Of a DNA stretch of 64,000 nt, positions 27,480 to 59,384 are shown one piece after another. The notes under the pieces were generated by a model that was not told the DNA's origin, ran no database searches, and was given only the letters and a program-made list of their open reading frames with translations. The stretch is from Leucoraja ocellata. Its lineage: Eukaryota. The position numbers and the translations under genes were made by a program. How positions within the stretch are numbered: position 1 is the stretch's first letter; the number at the start of each line of letters is the position of its first letter. Location: assembly GCA_036785375.1 (NCBI GenBank), contig JAWMAR010000008.1, positions 4,030,001 through 4,094,000 of the forward strand, read 5' to 3'.

Positions 27480-28320
27480 TGATAACAGTGTGAAACAAGT
27501 TGTTCTTGAATCTAGTGGTATATGCTTTCAAGATTTTGTATATTCTGTGAAAGAAAGAGAAGAGAGAATGACCTCAGTCTGAGTGATAATGTTATCTGCT
27601 TTCCCAAAGTGGATTGAAGTAGGTGGATGGGGGGAGCCTGATTTGCATGATGGACTCGGCTGCATCCACAGCTCTCTGCATTTCCTTATGGTATTGGGCA
27701 AAGCATTTGGTATATCAAGCTGTGACACAACCTGATAGGATGCATTCTACTGTGCATCTGCAGAAATGTATAAGATTCATTCGAGACATGCTGAATTTCC
27801 TTAGACTTCTGGGGAAGTAAGGGCTTTCTTGTCCATGGCACCAATGTGGTTGGACCAGGTCAATTTGTTGGTGATATTTACACCAAGGAATGTGAAGCTC
27901 TCAACCTTGTCCACTTCAGCACCATTGTTGCAGACTGGGATGTGTACACCACCCTACTTCCTTAAAGCGATGTCAGCTCCTTTGTTTTGCTTATATTGAG
28001 GTAGAATTTGTTATCCTGACACCATGCTGGTAAACTCATTATCTTATTTGTGTCCTCCATCTCATCATTGTTTGAAATCGAGCCAGAAATTTAAGTCCAG
28101 ATTTGGAATGATGGTGTTGTAGGCAGAGCTATAGTTTCTAACTTGAATTCTGACATTGACATCATTGTCATCCTGATGTTCCAGGAATGACTGTCGTGCA
28201 GGGTGACATCATCTGTCATGGACCTGCGGCAGCAACAGGTGAATTGTTGTGTGGGAGCCTAGGGTTGATGTATGATATGACCAACCTCTCGAAGCACTTT
28301 ATGATGATTTGATTTCAGAT
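27480..28320 (-). mobile_element. degenerate Rex1/Babar LINE RT C-terminal region
   Basis: Minus strand VESFTFLGVNITNKLTWSNHIGAMDKKA and downstream Rex1-type motifs. Confidence 0.75.
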
Positions 28321-28350
28321 TCACTCATCTTTAATGCACGCTACTTTGAT

Positions 28351-28675
28351 TTTTAGTTTAGGGTTTAGGTTAGTTTAGTTTAGAGATACAACGCAGAAAC
28401 AGGACCTTCGACCCACCGGTTCTGCGCTAACCAGCGATCCCTGCATATTAACACTATCCTACACCCACTCGGGACAATTTTTACATTTACCAACCAATTA
28501 ACCTACGTCTTTGGAGTGTGGGAGGAAACCGAAGATCTCGGAGAAAACCCACATGGTCACGGGGTGAACATACAAACTCCGTACAGGCAGCACCCATATT
28601 CGGGATCGAACCCGGGCCTCTGGTGCTGCATTCGCTATAAGGCAGCAACTCTACCACTGCACCGCCATGCTGCCC
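28351..28675 (-). mobile_element. HE1-like V-SINE
   Basis: Head, V-domain and (ctaaa)n tail. Confidence 0.88.
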
Positions 28676-29069
28676 TGCGCTGGGATGATAGCGGTCTTCG
28701 TAAAGCAGGTGGGAACTACAAATTGGAGTAGAGATAAGTTAAACACGTTCATGAATACCTGTTAGCTGATCTGTGCAGATTTTGAGGAAGCAACCAGGGA
28801 CTTCATCAGGGCCTGTCGCCTTTCATGGGTTCACTCTCAGGAAAGCTGATCTGACATCTGCGACAGTGAACATGGGGACAGATGTACCCGAGGTTGGTGT
28901 GGCATGTAATGTGATGTGATTTCACTGTTCAAAACAAACACATTGGGGAGGAATGAGTTTATACTAGCGATGATGTCTGACTTTACTTTGTAACCTGTCA
29001 CACAATGCAAGTCTTACACAATTGACAGGTGTCTGTGCAATTATTCTGCTACTCTAGGTTGGTTCATAA

Positions 29070-29215
29070 TTGTCATAGTCATAGAGTGATACAGCGTGGA
29101 CACAGGCCCTTCGACCCCACTTGCCCAAACCGACCAACATGTCCCAGCTGCACTAGTCCCACTTGCCCACATTTGCCGCATATCCCTCCAAACCTGTCCT
29201 ATCCATGAATTTGTC
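29070..29215 (-). mobile_element. CR1 3' UTR fragment
   Basis: Tail ctatgactatga and the gggcctgtgtcc motif on the minus strand. Confidence 0.75.
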
Positions 29216-30811
29216 TCCTAGCATTCTTGATGGGTTTGCAAAGGTCATACGTAAAATTCCTATGAAGGTCAGGGTCGTTTCACTCGAATACTACAGATTT
29301 GGAATTCACCAGCGAGTGCATCTCACGGTTTCCAGTTGTGGAATACTCGCACTGACTTCTTTGACACGCGGTCTTCAACATGCTTAGTGATGAAGTCTGT
29401 GATGTCAGTGGCATGTTCATTTAGGTGGGTCACTGAGTTCGTGAATAAGGACCAGTCCACCAACTCAAAGCAGTCACCGGATCTGTGATGTAGTTTGGGA
29501 TATTTCAGTACAGTGAAGGTTTTAACTGAATACTGTTTATGATTGTGGTTGTTCACAAAGTTCAACAGCCGTGATACCATTTCTTCAGCACTCTTTCATT
29601 CTCTCTGGCGTCAAGCTATCCGTAAACAACAGTAAGGTCATTGTTCCCTTCTTAAAATCTTACTTTCAATCATGTCCTTGAAGTGCATCAGGAATGCAAG
29701 TGGCATTTGCAATGCTGTTTTTTATTATCACCTTTGGACTTGTCTTCAATCACTGAACTTCTTCCAAATCTCCATCCATATCCTTTGCATGGCTAGCCCT
29801 GGGTTAATGGATTCACCGGCCAATTTACATATCGTCTGCATTCATAAAGTATTCATCGTTGTCTGAGCCAATTGAAACAGTTGTCCTGCTCTTCAGAAAA
29901 TCTTCCCAGAAGACAGTCAAGGCCACGGCCACTAAACGGGTTTGCTGCTTAATATGTGCAGCCGCATCCTCAGACTTCAGTCGGCCTGTAGGTGATGTTA
30001 TCTTACTGACAGGTTTAATGTTTAATTCAGCATTCATTGCAGCTGTTATCACAGTTGGAGTTAAGGAAGATTGGTACATGTGTAGCAAAGTGGAACATCG
30101 TGGATTAGGGTGTAGGATGGAGCTAGGAACTAGAAGGCTTGATCATGGACAGGATCTGCGGTGAGTGAAGGACATTGGAATAACTCAGCAGGTCAGGCAG
30201 CATCTCTGGACAACGTGAATAGGTGACACTTCCGCCAAGATCCTTTTACATCTTGTAATATTAACGGTCCCACACATTATGTCCTGTCCTGCCATTGCTT
30301 GTCATATAAGAGGATCTCTGCAGCTAAACCAGTATTTTTCGGGGAAGTCCAACTATTTCCACTTTAAATATAACTCTGGATTTTGTGAATCCCAATTATA
30401 ACTATTGCTGTGACTTTCCATGACTGTCACAGATTATGGGAATTAAAGACACATTTTCTGGACACTGCTGCGAGCAATCTGATAGAAAAACTCTTAGAGA
30501 TTATAAAGCCATATGTTATTTTTTCATTTTTCTTTGAATAGTTTTATTTAAAAGCTACATAAATATTAGAGTTTAATATTAAGTACTGAATAAGTGAAGC
30601 ATTCGGAGCATGAGGCCATGTAATGAAGCCTTCAGAAATGTATCTGTTCATAGATGGCAATTTTACGCCACGATATTTGGATTGCAACAGTGATTGCACT
30701 TCATTAGTAATGCATTGACCCTACAACACAGTATAACGGCTGGGGCCTGTTCGTAAACGTGTATCCATTGTGCACCCAGGAAATGAAAGCAGGACTGCAC
30801 AGTGGCACAGA

Positions 30812-31072
30812 GGGTGGAACAGTGGTGCAATGGTAGAGCTGCTGCCTCACAGTGCCAGAGACTAGGGTTCAATCCCGACAGTGGAGAGCTGTCTGTACAG
30901 AGTTTGTACATTCTCCCTATGACCCATGTGGGTTTTCTCCGGGTGCTCCAGTTTCTTCCCGCATTCCAAAGACGCGTGTGTGCGATACAAAAGTAGGATA
31001 ACATAGAAGGGGTGTTCGGGAGATCGATGGTCGGCGTGGCTGAAGGGCCTGTTTCCGTACTGTATCTCTAAA
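30812..31072 (+). mobile_element. HE1-like V-SINE
   Basis: ggttcaatccc B box, V-domain, tail. Confidence 0.85.
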
Positions 31073-32555
31073 CTCATATTACTAATATTTAAACAGAGAT
31101 CTTTTTTAAAGGAAGTGTTTGCGGAGTGTTTCATATCTCTGGCAGTGTTGAAGCTGCAATCTTGGGACATTTAAATACATGGGCTGAGGAGCTCAGTATT
31201 GAGGGAGTGTTAGGTTGTCAATTTTGGATAGGGTACAAAACCTCAGACAGTCTTCTCTCCCAGTGAATATAAAATATTCCACAGCAAGAAAGGCTTCCAT
31301 GTATCCTTGTCTGATGTTTCCTACAACTAACACTTAAAGCAGGTCACCTGGTTATTTACTTTCAATGCATTGTGGCTTTGCTACATACAGTTTGCCACAG
31401 CGACAGTGACAACACTTCAAAAATACTTCATTGGTTATAGAAGCCCACAGAAGATTTCAAGGTGATAAGAGGCACTAGATGAAAGCAAGTTCTTTGTTTT
31501 CCCTTCTTGTTATGGAAGCTCAGAGATGCGGTTGTTAGAAGATTACAACCTATACTCGTCCTTTCATGATAAAATTTGTAGCCATCATATAACCCATAAT
31601 TTCAACTGAGTTTGCTTGCTAACTCTGAACTGGATAAGTGGACTGATTTGTTCACCTCAAAGCTCTTCCATTCAATGGTTTCTCCTGCATCAAAAGAAAC
31701 ATATGCCATTTGATGGTTGATAACAACTGATGACTCAAAAGATCTGGGACATTTGGCAAAGTTAAATTGCAACAATCTTGCGATGTTGTCAGTATTTTTT
31801 CATCTGAATCCAGTGATCAAGAAAAAAAAACAAATTATCAAGAACAAAATTATGAGCCGTTGTACATGTGCCACAGTTTTATATTGCAACAGTGATGGCA
31901 TGTCAGCAGTAAAGCATTAGCCGACAACAGGTTAGAATGTCTTTGGAGCGACTCAAAATGCTCATTAGAAGTATGATACGCAGGCAACTAATTTGTGCTT
32001 TGGACATAGATCTTCAATTGGAGGTCCTGGGTCACAGGCATGACAGAGAGATCAAGAGAAGTTCAGATGTAAGAGTATCTGTTTTAAGGTACATCATAGA
32101 GATAGAGTCTGAAGAGGGAGAGGGGGGCATGAAGATTATCTGCATTGTGGTGTAAAACTGCCCCTATGTTTTAGGAGAGCATCTAAGCAATGAGCTTCAA
32201 AGCCCTTCAAAGGGCCGTTCCCTTTAACGTGCAGAAGCAGACCTTGCTTGACGTGGAGATATACAAGATTTATCCGTGCAAGTGATGGCCAACTAGGATG
32301 TTGTTGTGTATGTCCGCATGCCTCTGGCAGCCACAGGTAATGTTGATCAAATTCAATGCCATCAGCGACTTGCATAGTGAGTTTTCGGCTGAATTCCTTT
32401 GCTTCTCCTACAAAACAAGGTCCAGCATTGCACGTTCAGAAATATGAATTAGAAACTATTGCCAATAATTTTAGTGAATGATACAAGGGACCAGGTTCAA
32501 GGATCTGACTAGTAGAACCGAAAAAGGCTCACACGTCTGTTTAGTTGCCAATCAG

Positions 32556-32815
32556 TTTGATTGGCAAGAGAAAACAAAAACAGTACTTGTCTTGGTATGT
32601 GTGGGGTCCAGTTTACAGCAGCACGCCTCTCTCTCTCTCTCTCTTTGCCTCTGTCCGTGGCACTGATCCCGACTCAGCCCATCGCTGAACCCCTCTCGTA
32701 CATGAACTTTATTGGCAAGAGAGGGAACAAAAACAGTACTTGTCTTGGTATGCACGGGGTCCATTTTCCAGCAGCACCTCTCTCTCTCTCCCCCACTCTC
32801 CCCCTCTCTCTCTCT
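32556..32815 (+). repeat. tandem pair of ~150-bp units each ending in (CT)n
   Basis: ttggcaagag...caaaaacagtacttgtcttggtatg...ggggtcca...cagcagcac(ctct)n occurs at ~32556 and ~32708. Confidence 0.8.
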
Positions 32816-33440
32816 AAAGGATTTGAGTATAGGAGCAGGGAGGTTCTACTGCAGTTGTACAGGATCTTGGTGAGACCACACCTGGAGTATTGCGTACAGT
32901 TTTGGTCTCCTAATCTGAGGAAAGACATTCTTGCCATAGAGGGAGTACAGAGAAGGTTCACCAGACTGATTCCTGGGATGTCAGGACTTTCATATGAAGA
33001 AAGACTGCATAGATTTGGCTTGTACTCGCTAGAATTTAGAAGATTGAGGGGGGATCTTATAGAAACTTACAAAATTCTTAAGGGGTTCGACAGACTAGAT
33101 GCAGGAAGATTGTTCCCGATGTTGGGGAAGTCCAGAACAAGGGGTCATAGTTTAAGGATAAGGGGTAAATCTTTTAGGACCGAGATGAGAAAAAACATTT
33201 TTCACACAGAGAGTGGTGAATCTCTGGAATTCTCTGCCACAGAAGGTAATTGAGGCCAGTTCATTGGCTATATTTAAGAGGGAGTTAGATGTGGCCCTTG
33301 TGGCTAAAGGGATCAGGGGGTATGGAGAGAAGGCAGGTCGAGGATACTGAGTTGGATGATCAGCCATGATCATATTGAATGGCGGTGCAGGCTCGAAGGG
33401 CCGAATGGCCTACTCCTGCACCTATTTTCTATGTTCTATG
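32816..33440 (+). mobile_element. young 5'-truncated CR1 LINE
   Basis: Open frame LYRILVRPHLEYCVQFWSP...GLYSLEFRRLRGDLIETYKI...TRGHSLRI, then the 3' UTR and ttctatg tail. Confidence 0.95.
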
Positions 33441-35745
33441 ATTGCGGTGGATGGTGTCCATTTTGTGAATGGTATCTGATGTTGTCACAGTGAACTATTG
33501 GTGGAGAGTGGTGGATCTCTCTCCCCCCCCCCAGTTCAGCGGGAATGTATTCAATGCTGCTGCCTCAAAGTTAGCTTTCATGCGACATACATCAGTACGT
33601 GGTGATTCAATTGAAATACAGGGAAATCGATATCTGGTGTTCCACATTGCTTTGTAATTTCAGCAAATACTTCGGTTTAATATGTCTGTTTACAGTATTT
33701 AGCTCACCTGGTAAATGATGGTAACTCCGAAAATCTTATGAATGGGTACTGAATAGTATGCATCTTTTAAGTTGATGTCTACCATAAAGTATCCTAGGAA
33801 ATCCATGGTTAGCAGTTACAAGTTTCAATAAGTGTGTAACATGGTGAAAATACTCAAATGGTAAAGTCAATGATGGTGCAACATTCACCATCTTTGGGTT
33901 TTTTGGTACCAAAGGTTCATATTAGGCTTCTTTATGACCCCTAATATATATTCTCCAGTTAGCTAGTCCCTCCTGTTCTTTTTTAGTGGGAGGGTAGACC
34001 CTTTTGGGGTGCATGCTGAACTGGTAATATATGGTCCCTAGATAAGGGACGTATCAGATATTAAACTGATAAGAACAGATACTACACTTGATCTTAGCCA
34101 AAAGGCCGAGAAGTGATGGGTTTCGTAATTCAATTTTTATCCTTGAATACTTTTGGTATATAACTAACAAGTGTGATAGTTCTTCATGTTCCCAACCCAG
34201 GTGTGATCCCCCCCCCCCCCTCCCCCCTCCCTGTTAGTACAAACCCTTCATCTTTATTGTGATGGTAGGAACCATACTTATCTGTCTTCACTGTTGTTTA
34301 GTGGTGTGTTCATTTCTTTGGTTTCTGGTTCCTTGTCTGTAGGGATGGTGTTGTTGGGGGGTGGCGCATTTTCCATGGGGCCCCGCTCTGGACCCTGGCC
34401 TGAAAGGGCTTACGGGGGTTGGCATGCTTTCACCAGTGCTATTAAGTAGGCGCCTACTGGTGGACGCGTGGAGGTACTGCTGTCTGGTTTTGTGTGGTGT
34501 TCATTCCAGGCCCTGCCCTCTTGATGCCGAATATTTTGGATACTTCGTCCAGTTTCTTAGGCTTGGTTTGGTAACTTAGCCAGATAGCAGGATCTGTGGT
34601 TGTGAGGTCGGCGTTCTCACAGTCCTGTGAGTTTTTTAGTTTGAGGGCAGGTTTTATAACTTCCTTTGAGAAGTTGCAGACAGTACTGTGAACAGTAGGT
34701 TCAGGTGTTTTGCCATACTACCCTGCCCCTCTGGAATGAGCATGCAAAAATGATAGCTGACGTCAGAGGTATCAAATGCAATTTAAGATATTTGGGTTTT
34801 AAAAAGCTATGCTCAATGTACCCCCCAATAATGGTGGGCACTTTGAGTAAATGCAATTTAGGGGAGGCGTGATGAAATCCAACGCCTCATGACTACCTGT
34901 CTTGGAGAGGTTTTTTGAAAAGAACAGGTGGTAAGCTGGCCATCAGTTGAGACTGAATAGCCATCTCGCTAGTGGTGGAGCCACATAGCGGCCACACCCA
35001 GCAGCTCTTCCTGATCCTGTACCTCAAGCATACTCCCGATGTTGTTCAGCCAGTGAACCCTCTTCTTGACCAGCCCAGCCCTGGTCACCATCGATCCATC
35101 GATAAGGGAGATGGCCAGTGCTGTAGTGCATGAAGTGGGAGTGTTATGCTCCCTTGGCGAGCTTGCCCCTGCTCCTGAGGCAAGTCTTGCTGGAGTTTGA
35201 AGTGCCAATTCCATCTTCCGTGTCTGTCTCCAGCCCGAGGTTTGGTTGCTGGCTTTGCTGCTAGAGGCTGCCTGCCGTTTTCGGGCGGCGTTTCTGCGGT
35301 TCTCGGGCGGTGAGTCTCCTTGTCGGGAGTATGCAGGGGTTACCGGCCAGTTTTTTAGTTTCCCTCCAGTCCGCTGCTGTTGGTCAGACAGCTGTTAGCG
35401 GACTGGGCATCGGCTCAGTACCCTGACTGTGGACCGCAGCGTGTGCGGTCCCGGTGCCGCCTCTCCCCCCCTCCACTGACGGAACGCTCCTTCCCTGGAG
35501 TCGAACGGGGGCCGCTTCCCTCTGTTCTGCTTTGCTGTCTTCAGTTCCCCTGCAGCAACAAAGAGGAGCAAAGTAGTGAATTCGAACCTGTGGGTAAGTA
35601 CTTACCTAACGGTCCGTTCCTTCAGGCTTGTAGCGGGAGCGCCTGTACTCCCGTTCGTCGCTGTTGCATCTGCGTGAACGCTATGGCGCGCATGCGTGCT
35701 GGACGGGTTATTCACGTAGTCACTCACGTGGCTCCGAAGTAAAAT
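33441..35745 (-). mobile_element. DIRS retrotransposon copy A (5' end, gag, RT start, methyltransferase remnant; internally deleted)
   Basis: 5' end ttttacttcggagccacgtgagtgactacgtgaa matches the ICR of copy B; RT motif YFMVDINLKDAYYSVPIH (~33740-33790); MT motif VFAEITKQCGTPDID (~33625-33670) is homologous to VFAEITARYGTPDID in copy B. Confidence 0.85.
34025..34117 (-). pseudogene. RNU2: U2 snRNA 5' fragment (nt 1 to ~93, truncated before the Sm site)
   Basis: Minus strand ATCaCTTCTCGGCCTTTTGGCTAAGATCAAGTGTAGTATCTGTTCTTATCAGTTTAATATCTGATACGTCCCTTATCTAGGGACCATATATTA is the vertebrate U2 5' half, including GTAGTA and stem-loops I, IIa and IIb. Confidence 0.95.
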
Positions 35746-36734
35746 AACATGGAATCTGGCAGTGGGAAAAGGAACATAAGCCTTTGTGCAATTAATTGCA
35801 GGCATTTCTTATCTCTTCAATCGCAGCTGTTCATACCCTCCACTCTGTCCGCTGGTATTAGAAGGGTGAGATGTGGATCTTACTGCACTGGATGCCTAAT
35901 TGGAACGCCTGTGAATACCTGACATGCTGCAACAGTGGATTATGGATTAAGAGGTATCATCACTCTCACCTTCATTATCCACTCTGAAGTTGTCAGGACT
36001 TAATCCCTTCAACAATCCGACTGCTCCGTGCAAGATATTGCTGTTCGCAATTTGAAAATTAAGTTGCAGAAAGCTTTGTGCTTTAGAGCCAGATACCAGT
36101 AACAAGATTTTCACCCCAATGATTCAATTTCAGATACAACCCTCTGTGCAGTTATCTGGTATCTCCAACTCAGCACTGCCCTGCAGGCATGGACATACCG
36201 CTTGGTGCTGTGTCAAAGTCAAACCCATTGCACTGCAAATCCCAGACTGTATGAATGTTTAGTCCTAGATTGAAGTGGCAGTCTAGAATATGTCTCCGGA
36301 AAACACACCGTAAAGTAGAAAATGGTGCAGGGCTCCATCAGTCTGTTTGGTGCTGCTTGGGTGTGAAATTGGAGCATTTACCGAATGGCTAGCATCACCT
36401 TTAGATTTTCAGTGCACAATCATTTCAAAGTCCTTAGCACCAATATAACCTGTGCTGACTGATGTCGTGTCTCCATCTCATACTAGACTTGCTTGGCACC
36501 ACCAATGCTGGAATTCACCGTCAAACTTGGTTGTCTTCTCAGGTGACATGCCAATGTCGCCACGCCATTCCTCTGCTCTTCCATCACTTCTTGCTCCAAG
36601 CTACCGTCAGCAGCCGAGCTTGGAGTATTGCCTGGTTGTGATGGATGCTACAAGTCACCACATCTGGGGCTACCTGCTGTGCATGAGGACATCTCTGGAG
36701 CAGTCCCCCCTCTAGAAGCTGACTATGCTCAATT

Positions 36735-36875
36735 GCATCTGGGATGGCTTTAATCAGGCAACTGAATCATCCTACCACAACCAGAGAGCAGTGCTGAACT
36801 ACTATCTACCTCATTGGTGACCTTTGGACTATCCTTGATCGGACTTTGCTGGCTTTATTAAACATTATTCCCTTT
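36735..36875 (+). mobile_element. Rex1/Babar-type 3' UTR fragment
   Basis: caggcaactgaa...actatctacctcatt...gatcggacttt; a second copy lies on the minus strand at ~20105-20215. Confidence 0.55.
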
Positions 36876-38193
36876 GGTTGCTAAGCCATTCATTAACTGT
36901 AACATCATGCCACTAACATGGCAAATCTAACTTAGCTGGACTGATTGAGAAGACCACTTCCTTCCAGCATGCTTGCTCACAGCTCTGGAAACAAACCCAC
37001 ACTACCTGGGCAATGCATGTGCTAACTTACTTACGACAACACAGAAAGAGGCCATTTGACCCATCAGGTCCAGGCCAGCTGTCAAAGACCCTGCCAGTAA
37101 ATCAGATTTTCCTCTCATTTCCCCGTAAGCCTGCCCATGGTTTACAGTCTTAATGAACATAGCCTGATGTAATCTACAGTTCGTGAGTAGATCAGGGTTG
37201 TGATGTGGCACTTTCGCTCATGGTATCAACTTATTTTTTCTTTTGCCACTTACATACACCTAGAGATAATTTGCAGAAGTCAATTAAGGAACTAAGCAGT
37301 CTTAAGGATTTAAGGAATTAAGCAGTCACACAAGCCCATTCAGTCTCGGGGAGAACGTGCAAACTCTACAGGAGTGGTCAGCATTACATCATGTCAGTGC
37401 CGTGGTGAGGTGGGAGCTCCACTAGCTCTGAGCTGTCCAGCCAGCCCAAGCAATTTGAAGGAATTCTATTAAACCGTGTACACACAAAATTTGCAAAAGA
37501 AATTGGAAGCAAATCAGCAATCCTGGTAACAAAATAACTGGCATTACGGAGCATTATGTCACAGCTACTTTGCTGAGGATTTAATACCTACTTTGGGAAT
37601 AGGTGAAGACTGTCACTCTCTACCATAATGCAGGGTACCATGGAGCAATCAGCAGTGTGCCAATTCCAAAAAGCTGGCTCTCTTCCTGCCATTTAAAATG
37701 TCAGTGCAATTCAATACAGCCCTTTTAATGGGAGTAAATTAGAAACTAATTGATTTGGTGCTGTGCACTGTCATCTCTACATGGATTAGGTTGCTGCCTG
37801 GCTGAGGTATTTGTACAGGGCCAAGCATCCTTGCAAATACTAAAATTCTTATCTAATCTTCCTGCTGAAAATTACATCTCAAGGCAATTAAATTCACATC
37901 AGTCAGGATGCAATCTGTCAGGAGTAGGGTTAATCCGAGAGGCTGCAACATTTAACAATGAGATTCTTCTTCCTGCCATTATCTGTGAATTGTGTTCTCA
38001 CAGCCTGCAATGTAGAGTGAAGTGGTAGATTGGAGGGAGATTAAAATCCATGCTGTGATTAGCCAGATTTACATCGCTAAACTTCATCTCAGAGGGTCTT
38101 TTTCTCTTTCATTGTGTGTTGTTTTTGAATCTTTGTTTTACTCCCAAACACTGGTTCACATCGACCAGAAACCTTGTGGAATGCCCCTTCCGT

Positions 38194-57003: not shown

Positions 57004-57093
57004 TTCATAAATCACAGAAAGTAGAAAGAATTTAAAATAGCCCTAATGTACATCTTGTCATAGACCCAGAAATCACGAAGGGCATACAAAAAG

Positions 57094-59190
57094 ATAGTAA
57101 GATTAAACGAGAACTTACCAGTTTGAAGTTTGATCGTTATTTTATGAGGAGTAACGTTGAGGGATTACGTGAAGAACCCCGCCAGGAGGCATGCGTGTCA
57201 TTCTTCAAAGCAGCGGTGTGAAATCACAGATAACTGTAATGACTAAACACAGTAAGATTAGAGAAGAGATACCAGTTGAGTATATGATCAAGGGTGGGAG
57301 TGGAGGGCATGTAATCCCTCAACGTTACTCCTCATAAAATAATGATCAAACTTCAAACTGGTAAGTTCTCATTTAATCTTACTATTTTTCTTCGGAGTCA
57401 CGTGAGTGACTATGTGAAGATTTTAAAGCTCTGTGATTTCATGCCGTGGAAACGAGTCCATGCATCACATCTGCCTTGATTATGGGGAGAATAGTGTTAA
57501 CATCATTAGACATCAATACGATATTGAAAACCCAATGATAAATATATTAACACCAAATTATAGCCTCTATTTATGGGGTAAATTATATTACAGAACTTAA
57601 AATTGTTTCTGCAAATGTTCCAGTTTCAATGACTGGTTTGTTATAAAATCGTTGGAAAGTTTTCTCCGTTGACCATCCTGCTGTCTTGAGGATTTGGTCC
57701 ATAGGAACATCCAACTTCATAGCTGCCGATGTAGCTGCAGCCCTGGTGGAGTGAGATTTTAAAATGCTAGTGTCTACTCCAGCCTTTATTAGGACCTGTT
57801 TTAGCCATCTAGAGATGGTCTGGACTGTCACTGTTTTGAGTGGCTGTTTGTAGCTGATTAAAAGTGGCAATTCTTTCCCTCTGATGATCTTAGTATACTC
57901 CATGTATAATAGTAAGTGTGTTACAATACAGAGACGATCATCTGTCGGGTAGGCCCTGAATTCTGTTTTTAGGCCTGCTGACCCCTGTCTGTTTTGTTTG
58001 ACTAATTCATTGATGTGAAAAGTTAAATTTCCAGATGAGATAGTCATGTTGTCCAGCCTTAGTTTCTGTAGTGACTGGACCCTATGTGCCGTGACCAAGG
58101 CCATCATCATGACTGTTTGCATAGTCAGTTTCTGTAGGGACAGAGCTGTAGTTGGAGACCAGTTTCTTAACATGGTCAGTACAATGCTCACATCCCATAT
58201 TTGGGAGTACCTGGTTCTTGGGGGATTAACATTAAAAATGCCCCTCATGAGTTTGGTTACCAGGGTGTGTCCCAACAGAATACCGATCTGTTCCTTGCCA
58301 CAGGTATGTTGACAGAGCACTTCTGGCGCAGTTGATGGCACTATGACTGAGCCTCTCATCGTAATGGAGGCTTGCCAGGAATTCCAGAACAGACGGGATG
58401 TTCATAGATCTGTGGGTGATGTTTATTGTTGTGACAGTACTTCCCATTTCTTGATGACACCAAGTACTGTTTTTTGGTGGACTGTCTGTGGACCGCTGAA
58501 ATAATATCCACTGTTCGTCCGTCAGTCCCAGGTGTAGTAGAGGTGCTTTCAAACTCTACAAATTAATAGGTTTACATAATTAAGACATGGGTAACTTCCC
58601 GTTGTTGCGGGATGAACCAGTAAATTAGGTCTATGATGGATGGTGATGCATGGTTCTAATACCATGTCGAGTATCACCGGGACCCATGGTTGAGTAGGCC
58701 AATCGGGTACTATCAAAATACCAGATGCGGAGTCTTGCTGTATATTCCTAAATACCCGACTGATGAGGCAGAAAGGAGGGAATGCATAAATAAACAATCC
58801 CCCAATGCAGCGAAAATGCATCTGTTGCCACTGCCCCAGGTTCTGGTTCCCATGAACATAATTCGATAGCTGGTGTGAGCCTGGATGCGAATAGGTCGAT
58901 ATCTGGTGTTCCATACCGTGCTGTAATTTCAGCAAATACATTTTTATCCAACATCCATTCAGAGTTTTCATTGAATTTGCGTGACCTGTTGTCTGCCACT
59001 AAATTTAGTTTACCTGGTAAGTAGGTAGCTGATATCCAAATATCTCTCTCTGGATACACTATTGCCAGATTGTCACGTAATGTCGATTTGTTTCCACCCA
59101 TATGGGTGATATATGCTACCACGGTGGTGATGTCAATTTGTAGTCTAACATGCTGGTGATATAACCCAGAACAATATGACTTAAGGCCAT
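57094..59190 (-). mobile_element. DIRS retrotransposon copy B (RNase H end, methyltransferase, tyrosine recombinase, ICR, 3' terminus; 5'-truncated)
   Basis: RH: VRLQIDITTVVAYITHMGG; MT: GTPDIDLFAS, YAFPPFCLI, LIVPDWPTQPW; YR ORF; 78-bp inverted repeat at 57094-57171 and 57308-57385. Confidence 0.95.
57583..58552 (-). pseudogene. DIRS tyrosine recombinase ORF (frameshifted near 58270)
   Basis: VLEFLASL...SAINCARSALS (N-terminal domain); TAHRVQSL, KSHSTRAAATS, AGWSTEKTFQRFY carry the R...HxxR...W...Y catalytic set. Confidence 0.9.
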
Positions 59191-59384
59191 GGAATTCACT
59201 TAACATTCCCAGAATGTGCTTCAGTTATCTACAGCCCAGCTTGGAGCAAAGAGTGAAGCAATAACAAATGAAACAAAAGAAAAATCATGCCTCACTCCAG
59301 CAATGCACAGGGAAGTTGTCCAGATAACATGAAGTGTGCAGAGCATTAAGACAAACAAATACAGAAATAGAGGTTGGTGAGATG

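Follow-up and report, generated by a model that had tools for sequence, protein, structure and literature searches.

A U2 snRNA fragment inside a DIRS1-like retrotransposon of Leucoraja ocellata, and snRNA cargo in related elements

The U2 piece and its carrier element

The window, meaning the whole 64,000-nt stretch of Leucoraja ocellata DNA analysed here, contains on its minus strand a truncated, non-autonomous DIRS1-like retrotransposon with the 5' part of a U2 snRNA inside its pol region. The features are:

33520..35745, minus strand: truncated non-autonomous DIRS1-like copy (left end, gag remnant, start of pol)
35682..35745, minus strand: left inverted terminal repeat (ITR), first bases ATT, which aligns in inverted orientation with the right ITR of L053, a full copy
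34118..35681, minus strand: DIRS leader, degenerate ORF1 and pol N-terminus, upstream of U2 (tblastn against the ORFs of near-intact relative L188)
34025..34117, minus strand: U2 snRNA nt 1-93, sense to the element and replacing ACCA of the empty site (Rfam and alignment to native U2)
33707..34024, minus strand: degenerate reverse transcriptase (RT) region downstream of U2, with a DIRS-type RT motif at 33785-33756
33520..33713, minus strand: RNase H/methyltransferase (MT) remnant beyond a 730-nt deletion

A whole-window Rfam search gave a match to RF00004 on the minus strand (111 bits, E 1.2e-21) and no further one. The piece, at 34117-34025, is identical at 92 of 93 positions to nt 1-93 of the native U2 genes of the same genome; as an initial sequence-only reading had it, it starts at the U2 5' end, stops before the Sm site and lies on the same strand as the DIRS element. 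Because it begins at the first base of the RNA, with no gene flank, it is RNA-derived. Stem IIb has the native sequence and pairs in the predicted fold, which bears out the suggested origin from native U2. The sole difference, G4A, is common to nearly all copies of the family described below (family A); the A is the parent's base at the aligned position, and CpG decay accounts for the change equally well.

The flanks on either side of the piece are collinear DIRS pol on the same strand. The expectation that excising U2 would leave contiguous pol therefore holds for collinearity, but not for an open frame: the U2-less parents and the U2 carriers have the same run of small indels relative to the RT of a near-intact relative, and family A lacks the open ORFs of an autonomous element. 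From these shared indels it follows that the lineage had lost its coding capacity before the capture. The empty site reads AAACCC-ACCA-CCAG in 8 of the 100 places listed, out of 113 exact empty-site matches. U2 substitutes the four nucleotides ACCA, with a single shared A at each end. The 5' junction is an imperfect 3/5 match (parent ACCAC, U2 ATCGC, chimera ATCAC). Microhomologies proposed earlier (AT on the 5' side, ATATTA on the 3' side) found no support, ATATTA lying wholly within U2. A scan of the flanks found neither an A tail nor a target site duplication (TSD) of at least 7 nt, in agreement with the sequence-only reading.

The piece resembles a tailless retropseudogene in starting at nt 1 and in its end, which falls where the RNA is single-stranded and A-rich (the linker ahead of the Sm site), but it replaces four nucleotides, with one shared A and no TSD, where such a pseudogene has a TSD whose target is complementary to the RNA end. 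U6/L1-type chimeras consist of an snRNA 5' of a LINE 3' fragment, with an A tail and TSD; here there is DIRS pol on both sides and no LINE part. Utopia, a U2-targeting element, is grouped with Keno. In Keno, Utopia and SINEU, a non-LTR element is inserted in U2 or headed by it, whereas the window piece is internal to a tyrosine recombinase (YR) element, and Keno-like copies form a separate class in this genome.

The carrier is a DIRS1-like retrotransposon by the ITRs, the internal complementary region (ICR) and right extension, the ATT ends, and the RT, RNase H, MT and YR regions tested, matching the definition given in PMC3266345 and PMC7192593 (ITRs, ICR, right extension, ATT ends without TSD, and a gag-RT/RH/MT-YR layout). 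The full family length is ~4.74 kb. Full copies have inverted terminal ends, and in all 14 aligned right ends an ICR is complementary to both termini together with the right extension. The window copy retains the left end only, lacking ~730 nt internally (a deletion missing from the duplicate locus L153) and everything 3' of the RNase H/MT region, including YR, ICR and right ITR. As the ICR is described as essential for DIRS (PMC7192593), this copy is presumably a dead end. Near-intact U2-less relatives, 70-77% identical to family A in DNA, match RVT_1 at 73 bits over the cut-off; Phage_integrase (E 1e-5) and weak RVT_3 and Dam matches are all under it. No Pfam match was obtained for the ORF pieces of family A.

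The region from 27870 to 37057 is 97% identical to the duplicate locus L153 (G000:C8), ~1.5 Mb away and inverted. Many other element or pseudogene pairs share one contig, 0.1-1.5 Mb apart and often inverted, which suggests many large segmental duplications or assembly haplotypes. A second DIRS1-like element in the window (57091-59211, minus strand; the 3' part, with ICR and right end) belongs to another subfamily, ~70% identical to family A, and has no Rfam match. A GGTAAG motif resembling a splice donor lies at 35608-35592 (minus strand), ~140 nt past the element start, and occurs in every subfamily examined, including the leaders of L200, L215, L227, L229, L241 and L242. None of the 148 non-repeat ORFs in the window (341 ORFs in total) reached the Pfam cut-off and no host exon was identified, so the idea of a host intron antisense to U2 is unsupported.

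A family of copies sharing both U2 junctions

A junction search of the source genome, the check suggested by the sequence-only reading, showed that the window copy belongs to a propagating chimeric family with at least 49 loci having both U2 junctions, representing ~34 independent insertions. Each of the 40 places scored for the region spans U2, and all 30 that were aligned have both junctions. The 3' junction pattern gave 47 matches and the union of searches 48 loci; the diverged L313 makes 49, and since it surfaced in a blind sample, the count is a floor. Fifteen pairs of loci have common flanks, leaving 33 insertions (plus one, L313). Among the 48 loci, ATT was present at 39 of the 42 left ends found and 33 of the 35 right ends found. 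Because the family inherits the junction, patching of a break at the window locus by U2 cDNA after insertion, one of two routes offered earlier, is excluded.

The U2-less group is larger, with 1,149 matches to the 3' anchor, U2 being present in five of 30 inspected. In a tree built without the U2 columns (88 rows, none dropped), the 48 U2 rows sit on one branch nested among U2-less parents of the CCC type, with an SH-aLRT value of 86, which lies under the tool's 95 mark. The proposal that the capture founded a non-autonomous family thus stands as to the family, but the lineage had lost its autonomy before the capture.

The cargo decays neutrally, like its flanks, with no sign of selection. Among 32 independent copies there are 47 distinct changes in the 93 U2 sites and 148 in 251 flanking sites (p 0.38), so that the two, whose comparison had also been suggested, have diverged alike. 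An apparent better preservation of U2 (3.5% vs 4.5%, p 0.024) disappeared when the L179 row was left out and distinct changes rather than inherited repeats were counted.

About half of family A has an 83-nt tandem duplication just 3' of U2 (L056-L061, L024, L026-L030 and others), which the window copy lacks. At L162 a second DIRS adjoins. DIRS copies L046, L055, L157, L173, L189 and L192 all hit the same ATT in a CR1-like repeat (GTGGA-ATT-CTCTGCCAC), possibly a recombinase hot spot. In public runs the DIRS downstream flank was found in contigs of three organisms and in 30 RNA reads of a fourth, none of which covers the U2-DIRS junction. One public DNA run has depth on the U2 side, with no bridging piece among the matches listed, and no public RNA dataset among the matches listed has the chimera.

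Recurrent capture of U2, and single captures of other snRNAs

A pattern for the 5' part of U2 matched 322 places in the genome. Eighty were examined from the first 100 listed, taken from the largest contigs; six known family-A places and 14 on two contigs with U2 gene arrays (nine of them full genes) were left out. The 80 comprise 55 fragments in DIRS elements, 19 Keno-like and six other, a sample in which amplified families are over-represented; events seen once number four in DIRS and four outside. The DIRS-borne fragments fall into 10 junction classes (A, 5; B, 33, with one derivative; C, 5; D, 2; E and F, 3 each; G, H, I and J, 1 each), and an eleventh U2 event (class K) was met by chance in the blind sample. 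Capture sites are in the left ITR (I, J), the leader (B, C), the RT region (A, D, F, G) and the RNase H/MT region (E, H). The class D position is homologous to that of A, in another DIRS subfamily.

Nearly all captures start at or near nt 1, although class H matches U2 from nt 7 only. The 3' ends are at nt 90-96 in A, B, C, E, G and H and at nt 171-186 in D, F, I, J and K, and several captures carry a few extra A's beyond. Inaccessibility of an Sm-bound 3' half, invoked earlier for the end of the window piece, cannot be a general rule, since five of the 11 U2 captures run through the Sm site. No pre-U2 3' extension appears in junction alignments of the captured pieces. Class E skips ~135 nt of the element and class H repeats ~1,250 nt; a 14-nt U2 match considered for class E did not extend. 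Empty sites were found in none of B, C, F and H, and those for E, G, I, J and the U1 event come from relatives only 75-93% alike.

Two lineages acquired U2 twice. In class B, a fresh U2 1-96 (identical to native in 19 of 32 copies) lies in front of an older U2 29-90 (53-55 of 62 positions), the second having landed in the older piece. Class K is a second, near-full U2 within a sub-branch of family A (L179, L313), with ~3-4 nt (ATC/ATCC) repeated at both sides of the insert, possibly a short duplication. The older pieces in B and K are down to 84-88% identity. The only DIRS in 20 blind stretches also bears two U2 pieces. In classes B and C, U2 sits two bases past an acceptor-like TTACAG.

Among fragments outside DIRS, Keno-like elements headed by stacked snRNA 5' pieces (U5-U2, U2-U1 and U5-U1-like) were seen at L143, L195, L256, L257, L319, L324 and L341. 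At L147, L203 and L206 a U2 piece (nt 54-76) is closely followed by the same CR1-type 3' tail, reversed; in L203 and L206 the tail cuts U2 at the same base, nt 76.

Other snRNAs were tallied by hand in the same way as U2, with duplicated loci collapsed and genes and Keno-type copies left out. For U1, 16 matches gave three RNA-derived events; for U6, 31 matches, 30 of them examined, gave 17; and for U5, 30 matches gave five. Each has one event in DIRS, so that with the 11 U2 events there are 14 captures. The U5 capture founded a 14-copy DIRS family (L321-L347), with full U5 plus AAA cleanly inserted in the leader beside an earlier-captured CR1 tail; reading it as a U5-CR1 chimera was rejected, since the empty site has the tail too. 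The DIRS U6 event shows a 12-nt match, considered as a TSD, which belongs to an internal repeat of DIRS that its empty site also contains.

Independent RNA-derived events are in DIRS for U2 in 10 of 14 cases, as against one of 17 for U6 (p 0.00035) and three of 25 for U1, U5 and U6 together (10:4 vs 3:22, p 0.0003). The enrichment of the latter three in DIRS is not itself robust (p 0.007 at a DIRS genome share of 1.6%, 0.13 at 5%), and the share is poorly determined, coming from one element in one of the 20 blind stretches (3,235 of 200,000 nt). Counting only those DIRS events seen once, four of eight U2 events are in DIRS (p 0.005 even at a DIRS share of 10%).

Routes of capture and their implications

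With a probability of about 0.7, the captures are accounted for by DIRS reverse transcriptase switching onto co-localised U2 RNA and back, the other route offered by the sequence-only reading, in which such a switch founded a U2-carrying non-autonomous family. It is favoured by the 48 tested loci of the 49 forming one clade and by the 10 other DIRS sites, always in sense orientation. Minus-strand synthesis would run 3' to 5' along the DIRS RNA; the RT would leave it for U2, held with or packaged into DIRS particles, at the A-rich linker before the Sm site or near the U2 3' end, and copy U2 to nt 1. The cDNA end would then re-anneal to DIRS RNA through a short match to the first bases of U2, and the chimeric cDNA would be completed and integrated by the normal ICR/tyrosine-recombinase route. 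Proteins would be supplied in trans by intact relatives, allowing the chimera to spread to its ~34 sites.

Under this template-switch model, captures should be in sense orientation, begin at nt 1, match the first bases of U2 at the 5' junction, and now and then skip or repeat element sequence; each of these is observed. Over 10 events, matches to the first bases of the snRNA add up to 20 where 3.8 are expected; the six events with the closest empty relatives have 10 against 2.25 (P 0.0006). The U5 event has no 5' microhomology, and family A's own junctions, with only 1-nt homologies, fit several mechanisms. The longest U2-DIRS complementarity is 9-10 nt, the same as in shuffled sequences, with no pairing above chance that would explain the preference for U2. 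U2 as a primer or pairing partner was also considered: nt 70-96 pair ~1-2 SD above shuffles near the right end in six of seven elements, which is too weak.

Precedents exist among retroviruses, which package cytoplasmic pre-U2 (PMC4378196) and, through microhomology, build host RNAs such as 7SL into recombinants as patches (PMC4997597). The likeness lies in a packaged host non-coding RNA serving as third template at chance microhomologies; patching has been seen in virions and experimental recombinants, whereas here captures are recorded repeatedly in the germline, in a YR element that is not viral, and are read from genomic footprints (orientation, microhomology and non-collinear re-entry). 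DIRS-1 cDNA is reported to build up in the cytoplasm, and the DIRS replication primer is described as unidentified (PMC7192593).

Ligation could instead have made the 3' junction, cut or oligoadenylated U2 being joined to broken DIRS RNA, as in the RtcB route to U6/L1 chimeras named in PMC11838501, with the RT switching once, at the U2 5' end. In its favour, there is often little homology at the 3' junctions, together with a few additional A's (D, E, F, B, U5), and the ends cluster (six events at nt 90-96, five at 171-186). Against it, the ends occupy several positions instead of a single cut site, a jump onto a tailed RNA end would account for the A's equally well, and DIRS RT is still required for the 5' junction. 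This variant is unlikely.

Equally improbable, and disfavoured, is that a DIRS copy already in the genome received U2 cDNA from LINE machinery (as a tailless retropseudogene made through internal priming) or from break repair, and was later amplified in trans. LINE-made snRNA pseudogenes with TSDs are present in the genome (L139, L201). According to PMC5322556, tailless copies terminate where the RNA is single-stranded and A-rich, as at nt 90-96; the DIRS counts are inflated by amplification, and family A taken alone is compatible with this route. It predicts random orientation, however, and 14 of 14 captures are sense (p 0.00012); it predicts TSDs, and none of 7 nt or more was found in the 12 events scanned (10 U2, U1, U5), against nine of 16 U6 events outside DIRS with both a TSD and an A tail; it predicts a rate near the DIRS share of the genome, and the 10 of 14 U2 events in DIRS have p 7e-8 even if that share is assumed to be 10%. 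Long skips and the 1,250-nt repeat also misfit target-primed insertion.

That U2 is a selected cargo aiding the element (by stability, export, as a splicing decoy or as a packaging signal) is very improbable: the U2 and U5 families are amplified (A at 49 or more loci, B in 32 of the 80 sampled, U5 in 14 of 30) and second U2 pieces occur in B, K and the sole blind-stretch DIRS, but the piece in family A changes as its flanks do, relatives without U2 outnumber the carriers by far, the older B and K pieces have decayed, and positions are scattered. The cargo is most likely a passenger, reflecting a copying habit of DIRS rather than usefulness.

Template switching by DIRS RT would thus give chimeras of a known kind, snRNA joined to retroelement, in what is probably a new form: internal, multiplying and recurrent snRNA cargo in DIRS. 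The elements share ITRs, ICR, right extension, ATT ends and layout with described DIRS1-like elements, but include non-autonomous lineages with internal snRNA copies, cargo that goes unmentioned in the accessible text of PMC3266345 and PMC7192593. Like U6/L1 and other snRNA-LINE chimeras (PMC11838501), they have a sense snRNA joined from its 5' end to a retroelement during or before reverse transcription. There, however, the snRNA caps a 5'-truncated LINE between TSDs, with one junction and as a dead end (PMC11838501). A DIRS capture is internal and has two junctions, its carrier multiplies with both ends retained, and the predominant snRNA is U2, not U6. Keno and SINEU (PMC4494074), as well as Utopia, also attach U2 5' sequence to a mobile element, as do the Keno-like copies here (19 of 80), but they are non-LTR elements with U2 at the front (to nt ~40-55 here), tied to insertion in U2 genes. 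Cassandra, Helenus and Ajax are likewise non-autonomous retrotransposon families bearing a small-RNA segment, but carry 5S- or other small-RNA-like sequence, kept in Cassandra for its Pol III promoter, while the DIRS cargo decays neutrally and no internal promoter is reported for snRNAs (PMC4494074). A term search of PMC10886601 found neither snRNA nor DIRS, and no published report of snRNA cargo in DIRS was found in a search that left Repbase entries and subscription papers, which may describe such families, outside its scope.

Most dispersed U2 5' fragments sampled (55 of 80) are passengers of DIRS, neither genes nor LINE pseudogenes, which matters for snRNA annotation, U2 FISH and copy-number work. 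The captures also bear on DIRS replication, which is poorly known. A stronger version, held tentatively and at somewhat less than even odds, is that DIRS replication complexes selectively hold U2 and that the RT uses it as a routine bridging template. If so, DIRS copies would preserve, like fossils, which RNAs a scarcely studied replication particle contains and in which cell compartment it resides; the substrates would be U2 of half length, stopping short of the Sm site, and nearly complete U2, in some cases with an A tail. The 14 oriented captures, 11 of them of U2, give a testable prediction about what the DIRS RT encounters and the way it jumps. They would also add a third class of retroelement to those known from retroviral patch repair and U6/L1 chimera formation, one whose chimeras persist and proliferate.
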